A stretch of 64,000 nucleotides of DNA. Origin: Escherichia coli. GTDB lineage: Bacteria; Pseudomonadota; Gammaproteobacteria; Enterobacterales; Enterobacteriaceae. The notes under the pieces are model-generated. The model was not told the origin of the DNA. It saw nothing but the letters and a program-made list of their open reading frames with translations, and did no database searches. Below, in pieces: positions 3,247 through 3,340 of the stretch. The translations under genes and the position numbers were made by a program. The stretch is taken from the NCBI RefSeq assembly GCF_016026235.1, contig NZ_CP065613.1; one strand, 5' to 3'. Each line of letters opens with the position of its first letter. Within the stretch, counting starts at the first letter, position 1.

Positions 3247-3262
3247 GATAAAACGTTTTACC
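3247..3262. promoter_or_regulatory. Putative MalI operator half of a duplicated palindrome (GATAAAACGTTTTACC)
   Basis: Near-perfect 16-bp palindrome in the malI-malX divergent intergenic region; second copy at 3325-3340. Confidence 0.6.
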
Positions 3263-3324
3263 TTTTATTTATCTTATACCCGCTATTATCGTTGCGTAAT
3301 GTGATTTATGCCTCACTAAAATTT

Positions 3325-3340
3325 GATAAAACGTTTTATC
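3325..3340. promoter_or_regulatory. Putative MalI operator (perfect palindrome GATAAAACGTTTTATC)
   Basis: Perfect 16-bp palindrome about 50 bp upstream of the malX start; MalI is known to bind palindromes in this region. Confidence 0.6.

Follow-up and report, generated by a model that had tools for sequence, protein, structure and literature searches.

MalI of Escherichia coli is a repressor of the GalR/LacI family that binds a 16-bp target at both the malX and the malI promoters and thereby represses transcription (Sellars et al. 2017, from the Busby and Lee laboratories; PMC5543585). It has been described as the malXY repressor (PMC10878103), and loss-of-function malI alleles increase malX expression 7.4-fold and malY expression 6.2-fold (PMC12089948). 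Repeated selection for loss of malI function has been observed in the gut of gnotobiotic mice and in strains deficient in glucose transporters (PMC10878103, PMC12089948). Foci of MalI::mCherry were observed in living cells carrying an array of 20 copies of the site, and no foci were observed in cells without the array (PMC5543585). The MalI sites have since been reused as a fluorescent reporter–operator tool.

The promoter architecture of the locus was reportedly established by Lloyd et al. in 2008 (FEMS Microbiol Lett 288:250) and 2010 (FEMS Microbiol Lett 305:28). CRP is said to be located at -41.5 relative to malX and at -43.5 relative to malI, and the operators are said to occupy -24 to -9 at malX and +3 to +18 at malI. 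The evidence for the operators in the 2010 work is said to be mutational rather than from footprinting; each operator reportedly serves its own promoter only and is dispensable for repression at the other. More generally, operators of the LacI/GalR family typically have a central CG and are bound by a repressor dimer through its helix-turn-helix and hinge helix. To our knowledge, the divergent locus of MalI is its sole target, while PurR and Cra have large regulons.

The window analysed here is a stretch of 64,000 nucleotides of E. coli DNA in which the annotated RefSeq gene order is uidA-uidR-hdhA-malI-malX-malY-add. Over the 401 bases around the sites described below, identity to E. coli chromosomes was 100 %; of 5426 complete E. 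coli genomes, 5413 contained the region. The gap between malI and malX is 174 bp long and holds both sites; malY follows directly downstream of malX on the same strand, the two genes together spanning 3391–6165 (Table 1). The sequence-only reading had placed its palindromes between divergent malI and malX genes, and these assignments were borne out by the NCBIfam profile matches and the RefSeq annotation.

The regulator encoded beside the sites is a LacI-family repressor with an N-terminal helix-turn-helix. It matched model NF007449, named ‘Mal regulon transcriptional regulator MalI’, over its full length, and the LacI, PurR, GalR, CytR and RbsR models from residue 4–8 onward; the solved LacI and CcpA chains also matched. 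A second LacI-family repressor gene in the window is purR (41866–42891). When the window was searched for the PurR box ACGCAAACGTTTGCGT with up to three mismatches, one match was returned, at 43213–43228 inside punR, a count no higher than chance would give.

Table 1. Genes and regulatory elements of the malI–malX–malY locus, in window coordinates
Feature	Coordinates	Strand	Evidence
malI, LacI/GalR-family repressor, 342 aa	2188–3216	-	NF007449, 669 bits against a cut-off of 310; RefSeq malI
Putative malI ribosome-binding site GGGAG	3229–3233	-	Conserved 0.81–0.99 in 77 sequences
malI-proximal MalI operator GATAAAACGTTTTACC	3247–3262		Present in 80/80 loci; malI-promoter target stated in PMC5543585
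Probable malI -10 hexamer TATAAG	3273–3278	-	3274–3278 conserved 0.97–0.99
Shared CRP site, centre about 3307.5	3297–3318		TGTGA 3300–3304 invariant; right half about 3311–3317
malX-proximal MalI operator GATAAAACGTTTTATC	3325–3340		Equals the ‘MalI DNA site’ of PMC5543585; present in 80/80 loci
Probable malX -10 hexamer TATCTT, overlapping the operator	3337–3342	+	All six positions invariant
malX ribosome-binding site AGGAG	3379–3383	+	3379–3382 conserved 0.96–0.97, 3383 0.82; 7 nt before ATG at 3391
malX, PTS maltose/glucose transporter subunit IICB, 530 aa	3391–4983	+	NF007509, 1120 bits against a cut-off of 665; RefSeq malX
malY, PatB-family C-S lyase and MalT antagonist	4993–6165	+	TIGR04350, 378 bits against a cut-off of 340; RefSeq malY

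The two sites begin 78 bp apart, with 62 bp in between, and differ from one another by a single base. The malX-side site is a perfect 8+8 palindrome centred on C3332-G3333, and the malI-side site, centred on C3254-G3255, retains 7 of 8 palindromic pairs, being broken by a T to C change at 3261. The palindromes and the spacing given in the sequence-only reading were therefore confirmed, with perfection holding for GATAAAACGTTTTATC and not for GATAAAACGTTTTACC. With up to three mismatches allowed, these two were the only matches to the motif in the 64-kb window, against 0.33 expected, and a count of two was reached in 3 of 100 shuffles. For the 174-bp gap, given its own base composition, about 1.5e-5 copies with at most one mismatch would be expected by chance.

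Four perfect 16-bp palindromes were found in the whole window where about one was expected, so it is the near-identical pair that is remarkable here and not the palindrome alone. Two of these lie inside coding sequence, TCCTCAGCGCTGAGGA at 7218–7233 in add and CCCTGAAATTTCAGGG at 57273–57288 in ydhV, and neither has a partner copy. A perfect 20-bp palindrome, GCTATTGGTTAACCAATAGC, is located at 1191–1210 in the uidR–hdhA gap, about 110 bp upstream of uidR (490–1080, minus strand). It may be a candidate operator for a TetR-type regulator, conceivably UidR; no second copy with up to three mismatches was found in a plausible place.

A repeat search returned the malI–malX pair twice, once in direct orientation (18 nt, 94 %) and once inverted (15 nt, 100 %). 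The direct repeat, GATAAAACGTTTTAYCTT, is regarded as a coincidence in its full length of 18 nt, as the TT following the malI-side site is unconserved (0.21 and 0.05); the TT following the malX-side site belongs to the probable malX -10 hexamer. A 19-nt imperfect inverted repeat, I2, was likewise dismissed as AT-rich noise overlapping the operator.

The arrangement in the window was compared with the described MalI operators. The CRP and operator positions attributed to Lloyd et al. predict an operator spacing of 78 bp and a CRP centre at 3307.5, and the window agrees with both, with TGTGA at 3300–3304. On these positions, the transcription starts would fall at 3349 for malX and at 3264 for malI. 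The supplementary oligonucleotides D71689 and D71690 of PMC5543585 carry GATAAAACGTTTTATC marked as ‘MalI DNA site’, and this is identical, letter for letter, to window positions 3325–3340. Relative to the E. coli K-12 MalI operators (Lloyd 2008/2010), the locus is the same, there are two 16-bp targets, one per promoter, with a CRP site between them, and nothing differs. Positions 3247–3262 and 3325–3340 are the MalI operators of E. coli malX–malI, that is, those of Lloyd, Godfrey and Busby 2010. The sites, the protein that binds them and their role are already known, having been published in 2008–2010.

A protein-seeded scan with one genome per species gave 80 MalI-orthologue loci (L002–L081) at 69–100 % protein identity from about 20 enterobacterial genera, including Escherichia, Citrobacter, Salmonella, Enterobacter, Klebsiella, Raoultella, Kluyvera, Leclercia, Lelliottia and Trabulsiella. 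The intergenic alignment comprised 77 distinct sequences, and identity was measured against the window. A divergent malX was located upstream of malI in all 80 loci, and all 80 held exactly two strong matches to the motif, so that the pair is conserved together with its regulator across species. Five loci had a spacing of 78 bp between the matches, and the other 75 a spacing of 79 bp. The 12-mer core TAAAACGTTTTA occurred 152 times in the 542 kb of sequence fetched, where 0.03 occurrences were expected, and every occurrence was within 200 bp upstream of malI. A third, weak site with three mismatches in Kluyvera intermedia (L063) and in an Enterobacteriaceae isolate (L070) was not retained and is probably due to chance.

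In the 77-sequence alignment, the malI-side site had a mean identity to the window of 0.92 and the malX-side site one of 0.97, against 0.52–0.56 in both leaders and in the spacer that separates the CRP site from the malI-side site. Positions 3249–3260 of the malI-side site were conserved at 0.94–1.00. For the malX-side site, 14 of 16 positions were invariant, the others being 3334 (0.97) and position 2 of the site (3326; 0.47). The central CG was invariant in all 162 sites. Variation was confined to the symmetric positions 2 and 15, giving the consensus G-R-TAAAACGTTTTA-Y-C, and C3261 in the E. coli malI-side site is the mirror image of the common variant GGTAAAACGTTTTATC. On the malX side, all 81 sequences had T at position 15 (3339), whereas the mirror position, 2 (3326), was A in 39 and G in 42. 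This asymmetry is consistent with a double constraint, in which one base serves both the operator and the -10 hexamer TATCTT.

The 78-bp spacing was found in the window and in L002–L004, L006 (Escherichia) and L078. Four of the five Escherichia-clade loci fetched had this spacing, the fifth, E. albertii (L005), being at 79 bp. The base missing from the E. coli window maps to 3263–3273, the stretch separating the malI-side operator from the probable malI -10 hexamer. In three Citrobacter loci (L007, L008 and L009), the malI ribosome-binding site is separated from the malI-side operator by an insertion of about 23 bp; the operator-to-ATG offset of malI is 53–54 nt in these loci versus 25–31 nt, and the operator–CRP–operator core is untouched.

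The same alignment was used to delineate the promoter elements in the gap. The probable malI -10 hexamer is TATAAG in E. coli and TATAAA in most other genera. Within the CRP site, C3312 and C3314-A3315 of the right half were invariant; evidence for its being shared between the promoters also comes from the 2008 and 2010 papers of Lloyd et al., by their titles as cited in PMC5543585. The CRP site ends 6 bp from the malX-side operator. T3341 and T3342 were invariant although they lie outside the palindrome, as part of the probable malX -10 hexamer. A simple sigma-70 promoter scan of 3150–3450 found no promoter, as expected of CRP-dependent promoters that lack a -35 element, and thus lends the promoter assignments no positive support.

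With respect to related operators, both sites are 16-bp inverted repeats with the central CG, within the 16–18-bp range of LacI/GalR-family operators. The PurR box ACGCAAACGTTTGCGT and the Cra box TGAAACGTTTCA have the 16-bp inverted repeat, the central CG and the core AAACGTTT in common with the MalI sites, which differ from them in their specific outer half-site bases (GATAAAA). The predicted Bifidobacterium RbsR2/RbsR3 motif TGATAAAACGTTTTATCA has the same 16-bp core sequence (PMC4746261), but it belongs to another regulator, another phylum and other targets (ribonucleoside utilisation), and is known by prediction only. On the level of motif comparison, this likeness shows that the type of box recurs within the LacI family. 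The core TAAAACGTTTTA is also present in the Enterobacter scrAB promoter region. The lac operators O1, O2 and O3 and the gal operators OE and OI likewise combine multiple sites for one LacI-family repressor with a CRP-dependent promoter; they differ from the MalI pair in their looping, as the MalI sites lie on opposite faces of the DNA, each at a different promoter, and MalI appears to have no tetramerisation segment.

Taken together, we consider both sites to be MalI operators at which a malX-side dimer shuts down malX–malY and a malI-side dimer autoregulates malI, the two acting independently, and place the probability of this reading at about 95 %. A MalI dimer on 3325–3340 would cover the spacer of the malX promoter together with the first four bases of its -10 element. 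This promoter appears to have no -35 element and to depend on CRP, whose centre lies about 25 bp upstream of that of the operator, and MalI at the operator would keep RNA polymerase off by occlusion, shutting down malX–malY. The second dimer, on 3247–3262, would sit just downstream of the malI transcription start and may act as a roadblock to initiation or escape, and its occupancy would bring about negative autoregulation of malI. The start is placed there because the malI-side operator begins 11 bp downstream of the conserved TATAA (minus strand, 3278–3274), so that the operator would lie at or just after it. Autoregulatory roadblocks classically occupy this position. One CRP site, lying between the promoters, would be common to both, and the two operators, being on opposite faces of the DNA, would function independently and with no loop.

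Alternatively, the two operators and the CRP site might form one cooperative complex, either a MalI–MalI loop over the CRP bend or an anti-activation complex of the CytR type, in which both sites are needed. This would account for the 78/79-bp spacing being kept in all 80 loci while the malI leader ranges from 25 to 54 nt, and for the short distance between the CRP site and the malX-side operator. However, a looping pair would be expected to have in-phase spacing and a bridging repressor. The spacing of 78–79 bp corresponds to 7.43 or 7.52 helical turns, and the sites therefore face opposite sides of the DNA. MalI residues 5–340 align to LacI residues 2–325 of 360, with no apparent counterpart of the C-terminal tetramerisation helix, and MalI is probably a dimer. 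Phasing and alignment both bear on looping indirectly. The fixed spacing is fully explained with no need for a loop, since each operator is tied to its own -10 element and a single CRP site fixes the place of both promoters. The mutational data of Lloyd et al. 2010, in which each operator is reportedly dispensable for the other promoter, also argue against the complex, and we consider it very unlikely. These reported effects at each operator's own promoter likewise do not favour joint control of both promoters, which had been anticipated from the pair of palindromes; the part of that expectation that stands is the presence of a target at each promoter (PMC5543585). The mouse study suspects MalI control beyond malXY, and its malI mutants hint at further MalI operators elsewhere in the genome (PMC10878103). 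The broader proposition that either the rigid spacing reflects a higher-order MalI–CRP–MalI repression complex or further unmapped MalI operators exist elsewhere is only slightly less improbable than the cooperative complex by itself.

Invariant sites by themselves cannot show which protein binds them, and similar boxes are known for Cra, at scrAB and for the bifidobacterial RbsR regulators. Another LacI-family regulator (e.g. Cra/FruR, RbsR or ScrR) could then be the main binder, with MalI incidental. Against this, the sites accompany malI in every one of the 80 loci and are absent from the rest of the 542 kb fetched, MalI::mCherry binds arrays of exactly GATAAAACGTTTTATC in vivo (PMC5543585), and loss of malI alone is sufficient to derepress malX and malY (PMC12089948), leaving a different main binder an extremely improbable explanation. 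The interpretation of the sites as MalI operators, as put forward in the sequence-only reading, is supported by the same evidence. A last alternative is that the palindromes are RNA or DNA hairpins (a leader structure, a terminator or a recombination site) or remnants of chance or duplication. The malI-side site would be transcribed, and it forms a 7-bp hairpin in the predicted minimum-free-energy structure, but the predicted folding of the malI leader is no better than that of shuffled sequence (z = -0.27, with 67 of 200 shuffles folding as well). No terminator-like site was found in 3150–3450, and the conserved -10 hexamer places the malX-side site upstream of the start of transcription. Chance is excluded by the expectations given above for the gap and for the 12-mer core. 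These possibilities are effectively refuted, and the sites are best read as two independent MalI operators.

The analysis adds to the published description a cross-genus consensus, the restriction of free positions to 2 and 15, the double constraint on the malX side and the 78- versus 79-bp spacing. It also indicates that real operators were recognisable from sequence alone. The footprint across about 20 enterobacterial genera defines which operator positions are tolerated and marks the promoter elements of the locus.
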